DNA of 64,000 nucleotides from a bacterium (GTDB lineage: Bacteria > Zhuqueibacterota > Zhuqueibacteria > Oceanimicrobiales > Oceanimicrobiaceae), in the NCBI GenBank assembly GCA_037446635.1, contig JBBIIG010000013.1:1-64000 (forward strand). The letters are read 5' to 3'. The position numbers and the translations under genes were made by a program. The notes under the pieces are model-generated. The model searched no databases. It saw only the letters and a list, made by a program, of their open reading frames with translations, and was not told the DNA's origin. Of this stretch, positions 43,847 to 51,063 are shown one piece after another; positions within the stretch are counted from its first letter, which is position 1; the number at the start of each line of letters is the position of its first letter.

Positions 43847-44722
43847 ATGAAAATTGGATTTGTCGGGTTGGGCATCATGGGCCAGTTCATGAGCTTGAAT
43901 TTGATTAAAGCCGGATTCAAACTCACCGTTTGGAATCGCACCAAAGATAAAACCACTTCATTGAAAGCAGCCGGCGCCAGCGTTGCTGAGACCCTCGCCG
44001 ATTTAGCGGCCGCCAGCGATGTTATCATCACGATGGTGAACGACACGCCGGACGTCGAGGAAGTGATATTCGGACAACAAGGTCTGATCACGGGATTGGC
44101 TAAAGGAAAAATCGTGATCGATATGAGCACCATCAGTCCAGAAGCCACGGAAGATTTTGCAGCGCGTTTGCGAAAGCTCGGCTGCGAAATGTTGGATGCC
44201 CCGGTCTCCGGCGGCGACACCGGCGCACGCAACGCCACGTTGACCATCATGGTAGGAGGAAAGCAGAATATTTTTGAGAAATGCCGACCCATTTTTCAAG
44301 CACTGGGAAAAAATATTTTTTACTGCGGCCATCACGGCAACGGCCAACGCACCAAAATGATCAATCAGGTTTTGTGTGGACTGCACGCGGTGGCGCTTTC
44401 GGAAGCGTTTATCCTCGCGGAAAAAGTGGGGCTCGATTTGCAGGTCATGCACCAAGTTGTTTCCAGCGGCGCGGCCGGCTCGTGGGCGTTGAGCAACTAC
44501 GGCCCGCGCGTTCTCAACGGCGACTTTGCCCCCGGTTTCAAGTTGAAAATGCAGCACAAAGACCTGCGCATTGCTCATGAAACCGCGCAAAGATTTGACG
44601 AAGATTTTAAAGGCATCGAGTTGGCATTTCAACTCTACACCGAGGCCGTGAAAAAGGGATTGGGAGATTTTGGATCGCACGCGCTCATCAAGCTATATCA
44701 AAACGACGCGGGGAAAACGTGA
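43847..44722 (+). CDS. 3-hydroxyisobutyrate/tartronate-semialdehyde reductase family oxidoreductase
   Basis: GFVGLGIMG, DMSTISP, LDAPVSGG, KDL. Confidence 0.92.
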   Translation: MKIGFVGLGIMGQFMSLNLIKAGFKLTVWNRTKDKTTSLKAAGASVAETLADLAAASDVIITMVNDTPDVEEVIFGQQGLITGLAKGKIVIDMSTISPEATEDFAARLRKLGCEMLDAPVSGGDTGARNATLTIMVGGKQNIFEKCRPIFQALGKNIFYCGHHGNGQRTKMINQVLCGLHAVALSEAFILAEKVGLDLQVMHQVVSSGAAGSWALSNYGPRVLNGDFAPGFKLKMQHKDLRIAHETAQRFDEDFKGIELAFQLYTEAVKKGLGDFGSHALIKLYQNDAGKT

Positions 44723-45114
44723 AGCCAGTCGCCAGTCGCGCCAAACGATTTTGGGTGGTGTACGCAGCGCTAATTGTTTTGGCGGCGGTTTTTATCGTGC
44801 CACTTTGCGGGTGGCTCTATCAATGCGGTTGCACATTTTTGTGGGCGGGCGCCGCGCGTTACTGCAACATCCATCACGCGGAGGGGCCGCATTGTCCGTG
44901 GTGCGTGGCCGGAGGAGAACCTTTGCCCACAACTGCGCTGGGATTCTTACTATTTGCACCGCCGGCCATCGCCATTCATTGGTTCAACAAAAAGCCGGAA
45001 GCCTCGATCCCAAAGCTGTTTGTCGCCGGCTTGCTGACCTTTTTGCTCGCCGCGATTATTAGCGGATACATTTTTAAGTTGGTTTACGATTATCCCTATT
45101 TCTTTTTTAAGTGA
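44719..45114 (+). CDS. Cys-rich hypothetical membrane protein
   Basis: Three TMs; C...CGC...CNIH...HCPWC. Confidence 0.7.
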   Translation: MKPVASRAKRFWVVYAALIVLAAVFIVPLCGWLYQCGCTFLWAGAARYCNIHHAEGPHCPWCVAGGEPLPTTALGFLLFAPPAIAIHWFNKKPEASIPKLFVAGLLTFLLAAIISGYIFKLVYDYPYFFFK

Positions 45115-45137
45115 ACGGGTCCGCTGTCAGGCAGTTA

Positions 45138-45172
45138 TCATTAGTCAATAGACAATAATCAATAGTCAATTC
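45138..45172. repeat. Heptameric tandem repeat (TCAATAG)x5, degenerate
   Basis: tcattag tcaatag acaataa tcaatag tcaattc. Confidence 0.6.
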
Positions 45173-45177
45173 AAAAA

Positions 45178-46551
45178 GTGAATTCGAAAACTCGTTCCGA
45201 GCGGTTGGTGGTGATTGGCGGCTGCGCGGCTGGCATGAGCGCCGCCAGCAAAGCCAAACGCATGAACAAAAATCTGCAAGTCATTGCATTGGAGAAAACG
45301 CCGCACGTGTCGTACAGCGCCTGCGGCATCCCGTACTTTGTCGCGGATTTGGTGCGCGAGCCGCGGGAGTTGATTGCCATCACGCTGGAGGAATTTCGCG
45401 AGCAGCGCGGCATCGAGGCGTTGACCCGGCACGAGGTTGTCGAGATTCAGCCGGTGAAGAAGGCCGTTACCGCTATTAATTTAGATTCTGGCAAAGAAAC
45501 AAGGTTTGATTACGACAAGCTGGTAATTGCCGTTGGCGGCGTTCCCCAAAAACCAAATTTGCCAGGCTTGGATGCGAAGAATGTTTTTACTCTGCAGACG
45601 CTGCAGGATGGAATTTACCTTCGCAAATATATTGACGAACACCGCCCGAAACGTGCGGCGATCATCGGCGGCGGGTACATCGCTATGGAAATGGCGGAGG
45701 CCTTTCGCCAGCGTTCCCTCGAGGTGACGGTGATTCAAAAACGCGAGCAGATTTTATCGAGCTTTGAAGCGGATATCGTTGCGAAGGTTGCCGATGAATT
45801 AACCAAAAATGAAGTCAACATATTAACCGGCCGGGAAGCGAGCGCTTTGGAGGTAGAAGACGGTGGAATTGCCAAAAGTGTGGTTTTAACAGACAGCCAA
45901 AAGCTACCGGTGGATTTGGTACTCGTTTCCATTGGCCTTGCCCCCAACACAAAGTTGGCGGAAATGGCCGGTGTGCGAGCGGGCAACACTGGCGCCATCG
46001 CGGTGGATTGGAAAATGCAAACTAACGTACCCAACATTTACGCCGCCGGCGATTGCGTGGAGGTGAAGCATTTGGTCTCCGGCAAACCCGATTACATTCC
46101 CCTCGGCCCGACGGCCAACAAACAGGGCCGCGTGGCTGGCGAAAATATTGGCGGCGGCACCGCGACTTTCAAAGGCGTAGTGGGCACGACGGTTTTCAAA
46201 ACCTTCAATTTAGAAGTGGCGCAAACGGGTTTAAACGTTCAGCAGGCGAAGCAAAGCGGCTTTGAGCCGGATTCAATCACAATTACCGAGAATTCCAAAG
46301 CCGGTTATTATCCCGGCGTCAAGCCCATCACCGTGACGGTGATTTGGGACAAACGCAGCCGGCGCTTGTTGGGCGCGCAGATGGTGGGGGAGGAGGGCGT
46401 CAGCAAGCGCATCGATATTTTTGCGGCGGCGTTCACCAACAAAATGACGCTGGAGGAGATGGCCTATCTCGATCTCAGTTACGCGCCGCCGTTTGCGCCG
46501 GTGTGGGATCCGGTGCTGGTGGCGGTGGCTGCGGCGCGGGGGAAGCGGTGA
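45178..46551 (+). CDS. CoA-disulfide reductase / NADH oxidase family flavoprotein
   Basis: IGG.AAG, SYSACGIPY redox Cys, GGGYI, IYAAGD, LDLSYAPPF. Confidence 0.93.
   Translation: MNSKTRSERLVVIGGCAAGMSAASKAKRMNKNLQVIALEKTPHVSYSACGIPYFVADLVREPRELIAITLEEFREQRGIEALTRHEVVEIQPVKKAVTAINLDSGKETRFDYDKLVIAVGGVPQKPNLPGLDAKNVFTLQTLQDGIYLRKYIDEHRPKRAAIIGGGYIAMEMAEAFRQRSLEVTVIQKREQILSSFEADIVAKVADELTKNEVNILTGREASALEVEDGGIAKSVVLTDSQKLPVDLVLVSIGLAPNTKLAEMAGVRAGNTGAIAVDWKMQTNVPNIYAAGDCVEVKHLVSGKPDYIPLGPTANKQGRVAGENIGGGTATFKGVVGTTVFKTFNLEVAQTGLNVQQAKQSGFEPDSITITENSKAGYYPGVKPITVTVIWDKRSRRLLGAQMVGEEGVSKRIDIFAAAFTNKMTLEEMAYLDLSYAPPFAPVWDPVLVAVAAARGKR
46405..46551 (+). repeat. Repeat R1: 3' end of CoA-disulfide reductase gene
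   Basis: 51-bp core 46486-46536 identical to 47341-47391 and 48092-48142. Confidence 0.95.
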
Positions 46552-46620
46552 AGTGTGTTGATTATCGGTTTAACTTTACTAAATTTAGAGATGAAGTTTT
46601 AAAACATGAGGTCTTGACAA

Positions 46621-46932
46621 ATGATTACCAAAACATTAGATGGCCACATCGAAATGACTGAAGGAATTGCCGGCGGCAAACCGAGGATAGCCGGACATCG
46701 CATCACGGTACAAAATATTGTCATCTGGCATGAAATGTTGGGCCGCAGCGCCGATGAAATCGCAGCCGAATATGATCTCACTTTAGCAGACGTTTATGCA
46801 GCACTCGCTTATTACTATGACCATAGATCTGAAATTGATCAATCCATCGAACAGAGCGACTCTTTTGTCGAAGCCCTGCGTCAAAAAACACCTTCAAAAC
46901 TTGCAGAAAAATTGAATGAGCAAAAAGCTTAA
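46621..46932 (+). CDS. DUF433 family antitoxin
   Basis: GGKPRIAGHRITV, EIAAEY.LTLADVYAALAYYYDH. Confidence 0.92.
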   Translation: MITKTLDGHIEMTEGIAGGKPRIAGHRITVQNIVIWHEMLGRSADEIAAEYDLTLADVYAALAYYYDHRSEIDQSIEQSDSFVEALRQKTPSKLAEKLNEQKA

Positions 46933-47249
46933 GTTCTACACCGATGAGCATGTTCCGAATTCCGTTGTGAAGGGGTTGCGACTACGAGGTATTAACGTTC
47001 TAACAACAAAGGAGGCTGGAATGCTCAGCGCAAGTGATGAGGAGCATATCGCTTTTGCAAAAAAGGAGCAAAGGGTCCTATTCACTCAGGACGAGGATTT
47101 TCTTCGACTGCATTCTAAAGGCGTCGAGCATTGCGGTCTCGTTTTTGCTCATCAGCGTACACCCGTAGGTGATGTAAATTCGTGGGTTGATGCTCATCTA
47201 CCAAGTACTCGATTACAAAGACATGCAAAATCATGTTGAATTTATTTGA
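46916..47249 (+). pseudogene. DUF5615 PIN-like toxin with apparent +1 frameshift near 47177
   Basis: FYTDEHV, SDEE, LFTQDEDF; removing one A from gtaaatt restores ..GDVIRGLMLIYQVLDYKDMQNHVEFI* (stop 47249). Confidence 0.8.
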
Positions 47250-47259
47250 CCACTTTGAT

Positions 47260-47404
47260 AAACAGATCGAAATTTTCACAACGGCGCTCACCAGCAAAAT
47301 GACGCTGAATGAAATGGCATATCTCGATGTGAGTTACGCCCCGCCGTTTGCGCCGGTGTGGGATCCGGTGCTGGTGGCGGTGGCTGCGGCGCGGGAAGCG
47401 GTGA
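47260..47404 (+). repeat. Repeat R2: displaced copy of reductase 3' end
   Basis: Encodes KQIEIFTTALTSKMTLNEMAYLDVSYAPPFAPVWDPVLVAVAAAR; 108 bp identical to R3. Confidence 0.95.
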
Positions 47405-47410
47405 AAGGGT

Positions 47411-47439
47411 TTGATTTCTACTGCGCTAATTATTAAATT
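47411..47439 (+). promoter_or_regulatory. Putative cassette promoter
   Basis: TTGATT-17-TAAATT just after R2; similar TTGATT-16-TAAATT after R1 (46558-46585). Confidence 0.55.
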
Positions 47440-47453
47440 GCTGACGAGTTACA

Positions 47454-47738
47454 ATGAACTTGAACTTTGAATGGGATGAAAACAAAGCCAACGCAAATCT
47501 TAAAAAACACAAGATCAGTTTTGAGGAGGCAAAGACGATTTTTAATGATCCTTTTTTAATGACATTTCCTGATCCATATCATTCAAGTATTGAAAAACGT
47601 TATATCAATTTAGGTTGCTCTTCAAAAGGACGAATTCTGATTGTAATTCACACAGAACGAGGGGCAAATATTCGTCTTATCAGTTGCCGCAAAGCAACCC
47701 CATCGGAACGGAGAGTTTATGAAGAAAAAAAATTCTAA
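47454..47738 (+). CDS. brnT: BrnT family toxin
   Basis: FEWDENKA..N.KKH.ISFEEA..IF.D, IRLISCRKAT..ER..Y. Confidence 0.93.
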   Translation: MNLNFEWDENKANANLKKHKISFEEAKTIFNDPFLMTFPDPYHSSIEKRYINLGCSSKGRILIVIHTERGANIRLISCRKATPSERRVYEEKKF

Positions 47739-48024
47739 GTCAATGGACGTCGATAATGATATGCGTCCTGAATATGATTTCAAAAACATGGCTGGCGGCG
47801 TCCAGGGCAAATACTACAAGGCCTATCGTGCGGGACATATGGTTAAGGTTCATAAAGTGGATGGAACAACCGTTGTCCAGTACTTCAAGCTTGAAGATGG
47901 CGCCGTAATGTTAGAGCCGGACGTGCGAAAATATTTTCCTGACTCGGAAACGGTGAACAAGGCATTACGTTCTTTGATTGATCTCATACCAAGAAAGCGC
48001 CGGGCGGCCATTAAGGAAAATTAA
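47719..48024 (+). CDS. BrnA-like antitoxin
   Basis: MRPEYDF....GKYY, LEPDV..YFPDSE.VNKALR; overlaps brnT. Confidence 0.85.
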   Translation: MKKKNSKSMDVDNDMRPEYDFKNMAGGVQGKYYKAYRAGHMVKVHKVDGTTVVQYFKLEDGAVMLEPDVRKYFPDSETVNKALRSLIDLIPRKRRAAIKEN

Positions 48025-48034
48025 GCCGGCCGCC

Positions 48035-48154
48035 GCGCTCACCAGCAAAATGACGCTGAATGAAATGGCATATCTCGATGTGAGTTACGCCCCGCCGTTT
48101 GCGCCGGTGTGGGATCCGGTGCTGGTGGCGGTGGCTGCGGCGGGGAAGCGGTAG
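48035..48154 (+). repeat. Repeat R3: third copy of reductase 3' end
   Basis: 48035-48142 identical to 47284-47391; ends in-frame AAAGKR*. Confidence 0.95.
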
Positions 48155-48199
48155 CTCAAGCATTATTTTTGGAGAAATTCAAAAAAGAAGAAATAGTTT

Positions 48200-49141
48200 A
48201 TGAAAAAAATCCTCATCACCGGCATCAACGGGCAAATCGGCAGTGAACTGAGCGAGAAGTTAGAAGCTATCGTCGGAGTTGAAAACATCGTCGGGCTCGA
48301 TGTGCGGCCGTCAACCCCGCCGTATCGCATCGCCCACGAGATTGTGGACGTCACCCAAAAAGATGCGCTGCGCCACATCATCGAGCGCTATCACATCGAT
48401 ACCATTTTTCACCTCGCGTCGATTCTCTCGGCGCGCGGCGAACAGAATCCGGATCAGGCGTGGGAAATCAACACCACCGGCTTGAAGAATGTTTTGGATT
48501 TGTGCCGCGGCAAAAACATCAAAGTTTTCTGGCCCAGCTCCATTGCCGTGTTTGGCCCCACGACGCCAAAAGAGAACACGCCGCAGGACACGGTGGTGGA
48601 ACCCAGCACAATGTACGGCATCACCAAGCGTACTGGTGAGATGCTCTGCCAGTACTATTTCATGAAGTTTCATGTGGACGTGCGCAGCGTGCGCTATCCC
48701 GGTATCATCAGTTACAAAACCGAGCCCGGCGGCGGCACAACCGATTACGCCGTGGAGATTTTTTATGAAGCCCTGCGCGATCGTGTTTACACCTCCTTTG
48801 TCGGCCCTGAAACCTGCTTGCCGATGATGTACATGGACGACGCCGTGCAAGCGGCGATTCAAATCATGCAATGCGATTCCCAAAAAATCAAAATCCGTTC
48901 GAGCTACAATTTGACGGGAGTGAGTTTTACCGTCGAACAATTGGTGCGCGAGATTCAAAAATACATTCCTGAATTCCGCTGCAATTACGCGCCGGACTTC
49001 CGTCAGCAAATCGCCGATTCCTGGCCGAAGACCATCGATGATTCACGCGCCCGCCGCGATTGGGGCTGGCAGCACCAGTATGATTTGCCGGCGATTACGA
49101 AAGTGATGCTGGAAAAATTGCGTGAAAAGTTGAATTTGTAA
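48200..49141 (+). CDS. L-threonine 3-dehydrogenase (SDR/epimerase type)
   Basis: ITG.NGQIG, PSSIAVFGP, MYGITK, PGGGTTDYAV; adjacent to kbl. Confidence 0.92.
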   Translation: MKKILITGINGQIGSELSEKLEAIVGVENIVGLDVRPSTPPYRIAHEIVDVTQKDALRHIIERYHIDTIFHLASILSARGEQNPDQAWEINTTGLKNVLDLCRGKNIKVFWPSSIAVFGPTTPKENTPQDTVVEPSTMYGITKRTGEMLCQYYFMKFHVDVRSVRYPGIISYKTEPGGGTTDYAVEIFYEALRDRVYTSFVGPETCLPMMYMDDAVQAAIQIMQCDSQKIKIRSSYNLTGVSFTVEQLVREIQKYIPEFRCNYAPDFRQQIADSWPKTIDDSRARRDWGWQHQYDLPAITKVMLEKLREKLNL

Positions 49142-49204
49142 CTCAACATTTATGTTTGAGTCGAACCCACGACATTCATGTCGTGTTACGAATTAGGAGG
49201 AACT

Positions 49205-50380
49205 ATGGCGAACTTGAGTTTTCTCGATGACGAATTAAAGCAGCTGAAAGATCAGGGACTCTTCAACACCATTCGCACCATCGGCTCGGCCATGGGCGCG
49301 TGGATTGAAGTGGATGGCAAAAAAGTGTTGAACATGTGCGCCAACAATTACCTCGGGTTTGCGAATCATCCGGAGCTGAAAAAGGCGGCGCAAGATGCTA
49401 TCGAAAAATACGGTGTGGGACCGGCAGCGGTGAGATCGATTGCCGGGACGATGACCTTGCACCTCGAGTTAGAGGACAAGCTTGCCAAATTCAAAAACGT
49501 CGAGGCAGCGATTTCCTTTCAATCCGGGTTCAATTCCAACGTAGCGACGATTCCGACTTTGATGGGCCCGGAGGACGTGATTTTCTCTGACGAGCTGAAC
49601 CACGCCAGCATCATTGACGCCTGTCGTCTCACGAAAGCGAAAACGGTGCGCTATGCCCACTGCGATGCGGCCTCTCTGGAGGAAAAAATGAAAGAAGAAA
49701 ACTCCGCCCGCCGCAAATTGGTGGTTACGGACGGCGTTTTCAGCATGGACGGCGACATCGCGCCGCTGCCGGAAATTGTGGAAGTCGCCGCCAAATACGA
49801 CGCGATGGTGATGACCGACGACGCCCACGGCGAGGGCGTGCTCGGCCGCGCGGGCCGCGGCATCGCGGATCATTTTGGGCTGCACGGCAAAGTAGATATC
49901 GAAGTCGGCACGCTGTCGAAAGCGTTTGGCGTGGTGGGCGGATACGTGGCCGGCAAAAAGAAGATCGTCGATTACTTGCGGCAGCGGGCGCGGCCGTTTT
50001 TATTTTCCAGCGCGGTGACGCCGGCAGACGTGGCGGCATGCATCAAAGCCGTGGACATTTTAACGGCTTCCGGCGATCTGGTGGAAAAGCTTTGGCAGAA
50101 CACGCGCTACTTTCAAACCAAATTAAAAAATTTAGGCTACAACTTGGGTGTCACCACGACGCCCATCACGCCAGTGATGATCGGCGACCCGAAGAAGGCG
50201 CGCGAGTTCAGCGCGGCGTTGTTCGAGAACGGAATTTTCGGCATGGCGATTAGTTACCCAACAGTACCGAAGGGCAAAGACCGTATTCGCGTGATGAACT
50301 CCGCGACGCATTCAAAGGAGGATCTCGATTTTGCGGCGGGGGTATTTGAGAAGGTTGGTAAAAAGTTGAATATTATTTAA
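49205..50380 (+). CDS. kbl: Glycine C-acetyltransferase (2-amino-3-ketobutyrate CoA ligase)
   Basis: [38 protein letters not shown]. Confidence 0.92.
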
Positions 50381-50390
50381 AAATCAGCGC

Positions 50391-50549
50391 CACAGAGGCA
50401 CAGAGATATTTGACCGCAAAGAACGCAAAGCCGGCGCAAAGGTTCGCTAAAAAAAACAAATCTTTTTCCTTGCGTTGCTTTGCGTTTTCTTAGCAAACTT
50501 TGCGGTTATTTGGGTTGCGGGCTAATTCGGGCGGTGTACTCCGTGCCTC
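50391..50549. repeat. Nested palindromic intergenic element (9-mer based)
   Basis: Outer gaggcacagag/ctccgtgcctc; inner accgcaaagaacgcaaag.../...ctttgcg...ctttgcggt. Confidence 0.7.
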
Positions 50550-50564
50550 ACTGACTTTATTAAA

Positions 50565-50981
50565 ATGAAAGCCATCGTCAAACAAATTCAGGGCAACACG
50601 TTTGTTGCCAAAGCGGACTCGGGTCATTGGCTCACCATCGACACTTCGAAAAACGATGCGGGCTCGGCGGGCGCCAGCAGTCCGGTGGAGATGGTGTTGA
50701 TGGCTTTGGGCGCGTGTTCCGCGATGGACGTGGTGTTGATGCTTAAAAAGATGCGCGCCAACGTCACCGCATTTCATATCAACCTCGATGCCGAACGCGC
50801 GGAGACCTTTCCGCGGGTGTTCACGAAAGTGAAAATGGAATACGTTCTCTCCGGCGAAGACATCAAACCCAAAGACGTCGAACGGGCGATTCAGCTTTCT
50901 ATTGAGAAATACTGCTCGGTAGCGGGAATGGTGGGGAAGACGGCGGAGATTAAGACGTCGTACAAAATCAAAAGCAGTTAA
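50565..50981 (+). CDS. OsmC/YhfA family protein
   Basis: SPVE..L..LGACS.MDV, EKYCSV. Confidence 0.92.
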   Translation: MKAIVKQIQGNTFVAKADSGHWLTIDTSKNDAGSAGASSPVEMVLMALGACSAMDVVLMLKKMRANVTAFHINLDAERAETFPRVFTKVKMEYVLSGEDIKPKDVERAIQLSIEKYCSVAGMVGKTAEIKTSYKIKSS

Positions 50982-51063
50982 CCTCGCCTACCTTTCTCTC
51001 TGTCCGTTGAGATAGGAGATAAGATTTTCGGCAAAGCTGATCCGCTTTCGCGGACAGGTTCCA

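Follow-up and report, generated by a model that had tools for sequence, protein, structure and literature searches.

How do two small toxin–antitoxin (TA) gene pairs come to lie in a row behind an ordinary host gene, each followed by another copy of the end of that gene? The question is raised by a locus in a window of 64,000 nt (the whole stretch of DNA that was analysed, i.e. positions 1 to 64,000 of contig JBBIIG010000013.1, here C13) from assembly GCA_037446635.1, a bacterium of the Oceanimicrobiaceae (Zhuqueibacterota). The host gene, cdr, encodes a CoA-disulfide-reductase-like flavoprotein and is followed by a DUF433/DUF5615 pair (cassette 1) and a pair with a BrnT toxin (cassette 2). 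The array is one case of a family-wide habit, the addition of TA modules behind gene ends. Sequence comparisons suggest that both pairs were imported serially from relatives on DNA that carried the cdr end, and that host recombination used the gene end as an anchor; we regard this as the probable origin of the array.

Duplicated gene ends at cdr and elsewhere in the genome

The 3′ end of cdr is present in three direct copies, R1 to R3, which start at positions 46411, 47266, and 48017/48029, with spacings of 855 and 751 bp. The repeats have lengths of 119–153 bp and enclose inserts of about 0.6–0.7 kb, the GC (guanine plus cytosine) contents of which are 0.43 and 0.41, compared to 0.55 for cdr. 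The longest exact matches are 55 bp between R1 and R2 (46486–46540) and 51 bp between R1 and R3, and R2 and R3 are identical over 108 bp (47284–47391 and 48035–48142, respectively). An earlier reading of the window from its letters (the sequence-only reading) had described the layout R1-cassette-R2-cassette-R3 with these two periods, the live end of a reductase gene as the first copy, a 51-bp core in all three copies, and 108 identical bp in R2 and R3; the repeat coordinates and an exact-match search bear this out. The best NCBIfam match of the gene product, TIGR03385, has a score of 476 bits, which is below the curated cut-off of 579, and the gene is called CoA-disulfide-reductase-like here. 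The core has no copy in the genome beyond R1–R3, and no fourth copy of the cdr end was found in the 4.64-Mb genome (best other match with E ~0.02).

The run of G residues before the cdr stop codon varies in length between R1 (46536–46551), R2 (47391–47404), R3 (48142–48154), and the congener G001 (L002), and the live cdr gene of G001 runs on into a shifted end that resembles R2.

The genome was scanned for gene ends that have a non-paralogous copy outward of the gene, using the 3053 genes of at least 150 aa that had been called with a simple gene caller of our own. Such copies were found for the 3′ ends of 16 genes and for the 5′ ends of nine genes. Thirteen of the 16 3′-end cases were kept, after two long low-identity matches and one case at an N gap had been dropped. 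The 13 genes, which include ALAD, PFK, and nucleoside phosphorylase, have a doubled 3′ end around a sub-kilobase insert, with repeats of about 50–400 bp. Eleven of the 13 inserts hold TA-type Pfam families, some of them below the cut-off, i.e. ParE, BrnT, PemK, HicA/UPF0150, TumE, DUF433, DUF4160/DUF2442, and DUF2283. The DUF pairs are presumably TA systems. Of the remaining two inserts, one has a weak nucleotidyltransferase match and the other has no match. At most of the 13 loci the copies are 80–95% alike, and they are near-identical at two loci (C46, 98%; C61, 95%). A second array with three copies and two cassettes is present on contig C28 (4174–6199; L047), where the 3′ end of a helicase-like gene is doubled twice, around one TumE and one ParE pair; the repeats of 103 and 241 bp are 80–88% alike.

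Flanking repeats of at least 40 bp were found for six of the 19 BrnT/DUF433 matches in this genome, which is the unbiased rate for it; a figure of 18 of 51 repeat-flanked TA loci is too high, as flanked loci had supplied the queries. For relatives, the value is eight of 54 BrnT/DUF433 loci (five of 34 with full flanks), and three of the eight are clear gene-end duplications (L074, L083, and L102). The control value is eight of 300 other small genes; another control, with 14 of 250, mostly recovered the same TA cassettes.

How variable are these sites among relatives? Twenty-four of 61 genomes, this one among them, have a cdr orthologue, and 13 metagenome matches as well as 11 matches on genome contigs, partly duplicates of those 24, were added. 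None of the 25 distinct relative alleles has a duplicated cdr end (two of them have less than 200 bp of downstream sequence). Most of the slots are empty, and genes of the threonine-catabolism type or other host genes, as named from our reading of the translations, follow directly; the single-copy empty sites come from other genera of the family. TA cargo without a duplication is present in three slots, i.e. a PIN pair in L035 and in L030 and a PIN gene in L011. In the congener G001, the live cdr gene is directly followed by a tail of the R2 type and by a short BrnT-like start, and the contig ends there. Behind a glutamate-dehydrogenase-like (gdh-like) gene, the next gene follows directly in four relatives, and G001 has HicAB without a duplication; in the same slot of this genome, a MazF-like pair is followed by a spare gene end and then by a ParE pair. 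Duplicated ends were found in none of 16 relatives at the gdh-like slot and in none of nine at the mdh-like slot. The comparison of the locus across relatives revealed empty alleles as well as alleles with alternative cargo.

The differences between live and spare copies are concentrated at third codon positions. For the 13 loci together, with 543 codons, 31, 18, and 128 differences fall on positions 1, 2, and 3, respectively, i.e. the third-position share is 0.72 (128 of 177), and the ratio of nonsynonymous to synonymous differences (pN/pS) is 0.14. When in-place duplication followed by decay was simulated, none of 400 simulations reached the observed share in any of six settings, and the maximum was 0.56 with a transition bias of up to 10. 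Changes on the spare branch could be polarised with the aid of relatives for five loci; 33 of 47 are at position 3 and one of 47 is at position 2, with 27 more sites being ambiguous. Duplications in relatives are biased alike (L083: 26 of 35). In-place duplication with neutral decay was rejected on the basis of the codon-position counts, the simulations, and the polarised changes. From the third-position bias it follows that, until recently, the spare ends were working alleles of another lineage.

At cdr, each of the nine R2-specific bases is found in at least two of 24 live relative alleles, and none of the 24 has the Ala that is common to all three copies. Codon shuffles yield shorter identical patches than those observed (p = 0.015 for cdr; p = 3e-4 for ten loci combined), a result that points to recombination between copies. 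These comparisons support the view that the copies are mosaics of once-functional alleles.

Homology-anchored import and competing explanations

How might a serial import have proceeded? TA pairs would first settle in the gap behind a conserved gene without any duplication, as in L035, L030, and L160. A fragment of a relative with the gene end, the promoter, and the TA pair would then recombine by homology within the gene, and its far end would be linked to the chromosome by an illegitimate joint within this gene; alternatively, the fragment would enter as a circle via one crossover. Each new pair would land in front of the older content, the spare gene end would stay behind the new pair, and repeated rounds would lead to R1-TA1-R2-TA2-R3. 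A later crossover or gene conversion between copies could have produced the identical 51-bp core and the identical parts of R2 and R3. Addiction may favour events that retain the resident TA pair over its clean replacement; a further TA gene past the last spare copy is present at six of the 13 loci (four clear pairs and two weak ones), as expected if loss of the resident pair is selected against, and a simple hot spot would give the same result. Genes for RecA, ComEC, and DprA are present in the genome of this uncultured lineage. Serial TA capture behind a gene end that serves as homology handle had also been suggested by the sequence-only reading, with RecA as one of two possible agents; such a capture, with host recombination as the likely agent, gains support from the empty and alternative alleles of relatives and from the mosaic copies.

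Several observations weigh against this import. Seven of the 13 loci, R3 included, have no TA gene past the last spare copy, so addiction cannot account for all cases. The joints are sharp, with the stop codons of co-oriented cargo genes 5–23 bp away from the joint (nine joints), and a random illegitimate join would not obviously yield such tight cargo ends. A fragment of the donor's next gene was detected at none of 15 joints with a flank test, and a 50-bp match is present further inside at one locus (C42). Passages of PMC5361080 describe homology-facilitated illegitimate recombination as rare. The codon bias at cdr itself is weak (5/1/8 differences for R2, pN/pS ~0.4), and 5′-end duplications enclose TA-type cargo in two of nine cases. 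For the assignment of donor and resident copies, the third-position GC contents of 45 versus 49 are uninformative and outgroups side with both copies; the relatives compared are other species, either copy may be the donor's, and the entry may have been linear or circular. Lastly, competence genes are no proof of DNA uptake by the organism.

A more far-reaching version, which we put forward tentatively and think doubtful, is that the TA modules of this lineage are autonomous recombinase-free elements, which would use the retained spare end as handle, form circles of 0.6–1 kb that comprise the gene end, the promoter, and the TA pair, re-enter the copy of the gene in any relative through a single RecA crossover, and be stacked because of addiction.

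The tight cargo ends are compatible with a true target duplication, in which a TA module inserts as a precise unit and doubles the gene end in place, the divergence of the copies being due to a later exchange of the live gene, or of the whole array, across lineages by ordinary homologous recombination. This explanation is also in accord with the identity of R2 and R3 over 108 bp: R1 and R2 differ at nine of 57 sites before the core and at none of 51 sites within it (p ~0.02), and a divergence of R1 that is confined to the region upstream of the core fits a single later crossover in R1. Two further observations would be explained, i.e. the near-identical copies at C46 and C61, and the presence of a near-identical DUF433/DUF5615 cassette in two genera (G012 and G006) at different sites and with different flanking repeats (L096:1040–1760 and L102:1030–1760). 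However, most of the 13 loci would need a second exchange across lineages that preceded the decay of the spare copy, given that one of 47 polarised changes is at position 2, and the TA cargo of relatives in the same slots is undoubled (0 of 25 for cdr, 0 of 16 for the gdh-like, and 0 of nine for the mdh-like slot). We consider a true target duplication to be unlikely.

Could the repeats be scars of integrase-dependent elements? Phage-like or integron-derived elements might have brought a replacement gene end and shrunk to the TA pair, or might move via an integrase in trans. The genome encodes two other tyrosine recombinases in addition to an integron integrase, which has a score of 486 bits, over the TIGR02249 cut-off, and is encoded on contig C9 (96345–97906; L182), whereas the array is on C13. 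The conclusion of the sequence-only reading that an integrase is lacking therefore holds for this contig, on which no tyrosine recombinase gene was found, but not for the genome; resolvase genes were not found genome-wide. A replacement end borne by an element would likewise diverge at third positions, and the streamlining of mobile elements to TA islets has been proposed in passages of Belot et al. 2026 (PMC13617665). In contrast, the 13 targets are unrelated, the repeat lengths are variable, the joints have no common motif, and the integron core GTTRRRY is present at none of 15 joints. An attC-like site was not found between 46300 and 48300 in a rough scan of low sensitivity and with no validated positive control, which also called none in L096, where we suspected one. 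No recombinase remnant was detected in any insert scanned. Viral contigs gave no match to the core 51-mer, so a phage carrying the core was rejected, and homologues of the cassettes elsewhere in the class lack flanking repeats at all 11 loci examined, of 24 returned (two of them self matches). The cdr array is not an integron, and the suggestion of an integron-like array that is served by a dedicated recombinase in trans is not supported in view of the unrelated targets, the variable repeats, and the joints. That the repeats are scars of such elements is quite improbable.

In the vicinity of the integron integrase gene on C9, a small open reading frame (ORF) follows and then the contig ends, so its cassette array may be unassembled. 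The flanks of the DUF433/DUF5615 cassette in L096 appear attC-like by eye and were not called by the scan.

An assembly chimera, in which strain variants would have been joined through the identical stretches of 55 and 108 bp at this locus only, would be in line with the metagenome-type assembly of 110 contigs and with the R2-like tail and BrnT-like start directly behind the live cdr gene of G001, but it is very unlikely, as the flanks of the three copies are distinct, contamination is 0.3%, and copies that are only 80–88% alike in the C28 array and 80–95% alike at most of the 13 loci cannot be produced by collapse.

Cargo genes and promoter-like motif of the cdr array

The sequence-only reading had named the cargo as a DUF433/DUF5615 and a BrnT/BrnA pair. 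Pfam calls were obtained for DUF433 and DUF5615 in cassette 1 and for BrnT in cassette 2, confirming these three families. In contrast, the BrnT partner of 101 aa has neither a Pfam nor an NCBIfam match, so that "BrnA" denotes its position; a protein encoded behind a BrnT-like gene of another genome shares 71% identity with it. In the case of the DUF5615 toxin, only the first 87 residues match the intact homologue, and the remainder is in another frame that ends at 47249, i.e. the gene is frameshifted. The toxin and antitoxin roles of both pairs are predicted from family assignments. A dedication of the cassettes to cdr was rejected, as close homologues of both (65–76% DNA identity) are found at unrelated sites. 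The possibility that a third cassette has been lost behind R3, based on an 8-base match to L035, was not retained; L030 lacks the match, which is also out of register.

A TTGATT..TAAATT motif had been thought to open each cassette as a promoter. It is present behind R1 and R2 and absent behind R3, and it is below the threshold of a promoter scanner. With a loose pattern, which was chosen after the motif had been seen, it was found 3′ of the live cdr stop codon in six of the 25 distinct relative alleles, compared to 59 of 2616 genes of the genome. The occurrence after the cdr stop codon in relatives shows that the motif belongs to the host gene end and not to the cargo. A cassette-borne promoter was rejected, because the motif trails cdr also in relatives without cargo.

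The features of the locus are compiled in Table 1. The region from 44000 to 51000 has no Rfam match to a structured RNA at E values of up to 0.1. Upstream of cdr, a low-complexity short repeat (45140–45172) also matches four places in G001.

Table 1. Coordinates of the cdr gene, the copies of its 3′ end, the two cassettes, and the downstream gene (positions in the window).
Feature	Position	Strand	Remark
cdr host gene, CoA-disulfide-reductase-like flavoprotein, 457 aa	45178..46551	+	Family match below equivalog cut-off
R1, live cdr 3′ end	46411..46551	+	46486–46536 identical across all three copies
Promoter-like motif of the host gene end	46558..46585	+	Also 3′ of cdr in 6/25 relative alleles
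Cassette 1, DUF433 protein, predicted antitoxin	46621..46932	+	Pfam
Cassette 1, DUF5615/PIN-like predicted toxin, frameshifted after codon 87	46916..47249	+	End of the open frame at 47239 and of the old frame at 47249
R2, leftover cdr 3′ end, divergent allele	47266..47404	+	G run ahead of the stop codon has two bases fewer than in R1
Promoter-like motif behind R2	47411..47439	+	Tail resembles live cdr tail of congener G001
Cassette 2, BrnT toxin (predicted)	47454..47738	+	Pfam
Cassette 2, 101-aa BrnT partner, antitoxin by position only	47719..48024	+	No family match
R3, last leftover cdr 3′ end	48029..48154	+	Identical to R2 over 108 bp; not followed by the promoter motif
Downstream host gene, NAD-dependent epimerase/dehydratase family	48200..49141	+	Directly after cdr in L008; after PIN pair in L035

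Relation to known systems and further loci

The following comparisons refer to passages of the cited papers. In these, the arrival of chromosomal TA pairs without a mobility gene and the formation of long target duplications are left open. Import anchored by homology would be a likely explanation for the spread of TA pairs without an enzyme of their own, and the best reading is that it adds cargo rather than replacing it. With its 13 natural cases, the genome also supplies a simple test based on sequence, i.e. the codon-position bias between the live and the spare end. The test identifies the duplicate as a working allele that was imported or displaced, and it can be run on any genome set, cases with restriction-modification (RM) genes included. 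If import were widespread, gene ends would generally serve small selfish genes as points of entry, and the last 50–350 bases of a live gene would often be foreign. If circles and re-entry were the mode, this would be a general route of chromosomal TA spread that turns ordinary gene ends into serial cassette arrays, and "long target duplication" would be explained as allele import.

RM genes have been described to insert with a long target duplication, and a cycle of insertion, amplification, and release has been proposed, the release being unproven (Furuta, Abe, Kobayashi 2010, PMC2853133); the duplications were also reviewed in PMC3874152. Common to these cases and the cdr array are addictive genes, the lack of a mobility gene, and long direct repeats of variable length that often run across a start or stop codon. 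As in the definition of Furuta et al., the insert is smaller than 20 kb, the direct repeat is longer than 30 bp and unique in the genome, and no other mobile-element gene was found at the locus; the cargo, DUF433/DUF5615 and BrnT, is not RM. In contrast to the RM insertions, the cargo consists of type II TA pairs, there are 13 sites in one genome, pairs are stacked serially, and the copies are diverged functional alleles and not fresh duplicates. In addition, the argument of the RM paper that is based on DNA breaks is not applicable to the RNase toxins of the TA cargo.

The arrays of type VI secretion system immunity genes in Vibrio cholerae have been ascribed to homology-facilitated illegitimate recombination (Kirchberger et al. 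2017, PMC5361080). They share with the cdr array a conserved upstream anchor, new modules in front, the displacement of older content downstream, and the lack of a known integrase. Also in line with this mechanism, a homologous gene-end anchor is present on one side and a sharp, motif-free joint between cargo and gene on the other, and according to the codon-position tests the members come from different lineages and not from duplication. The differences are that the anchor is an ordinary host gene that is left doubled, that the cargo consists of intracellular TA pairs, and that many unrelated genes are involved.

For small chromosomal TA islets, a spread by homologous recombination at flanking core genes has been proposed (Belot et al. 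2026, PMC13617665). The likeness extends to TA-only islets between core genes, variability among relatives, and toxin decay, as exemplified by the frameshifted DUF5615 gene. However, the route proposed there is allele replacement by double crossover, and the passages of that text mention neither duplicated gene ends nor additive stacking. A report of TA pairs between duplicated gene ends was not found in searches of an open-access library. The long-duplication paper is cited in PMC2654758, the passages of which give no TA example, and PMC2884548 gives a fraction of 10–18% of small variable segments that are flanked by repeats, mostly short ones.

Like integrons, the array is an ordered series of small cassettes with TA cargo, the newest one likely being the first. 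Unlike in integrons, an adjacent IntI, an attC-like site, and GTTRRRY at the joints were not found, and ends of host genes serve as spacers. Some prophages, e.g. e14 at icd, replace gene ends. Additive flexible genomic islands have repeats of tRNA ends (Lopez-Perez and Rodriguez-Valera 2016, PMC4898812). In both, as here, tandem cassettes are each marked by a repeat of the target 3′ end; yet they use integrase sites with a fixed core, whereas the ends of protein genes found here vary in length and have no common core. The inserts contain neither an integrase gene nor a remnant of one, and the 13 targets have no shared motif.

Several further loci have repeats around TA-type cargo. On contig C8 (102188–104545; L055), a 335-bp coding duplicate of the end of an ABC-permease-like gene is found around a DUF4160/DUF2442 pair, and a MazF pair follows between 89-bp repeats of its own. 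Start-side duplications around TA-type cargo are present at L056 (C5:63052–66640, three copies) and L057 (C79:6398–7681). On C38 (32824–37240; L058), several TA pairs (RelE/HTH, BrnT, and MazF) are split by direct repeats of 40–110 bp that are unconnected to any long gene end. The spare copy on C42 (22055–23535; L052) consists of two pieces with a gap between them, and 50 bp just behind it match the end of a HicA-like gene, suggesting erosion or a lost older cassette. In the relative G014 (L207), three small TA-like ORFs lie behind a hydroxybutyryl-CoA-dehydrogenase-like gene, which is the slot of C18 in this genome. Finally, the region C23:42300–59600 contains very long, internally repetitive coding regions, which probably encode giant surface proteins.

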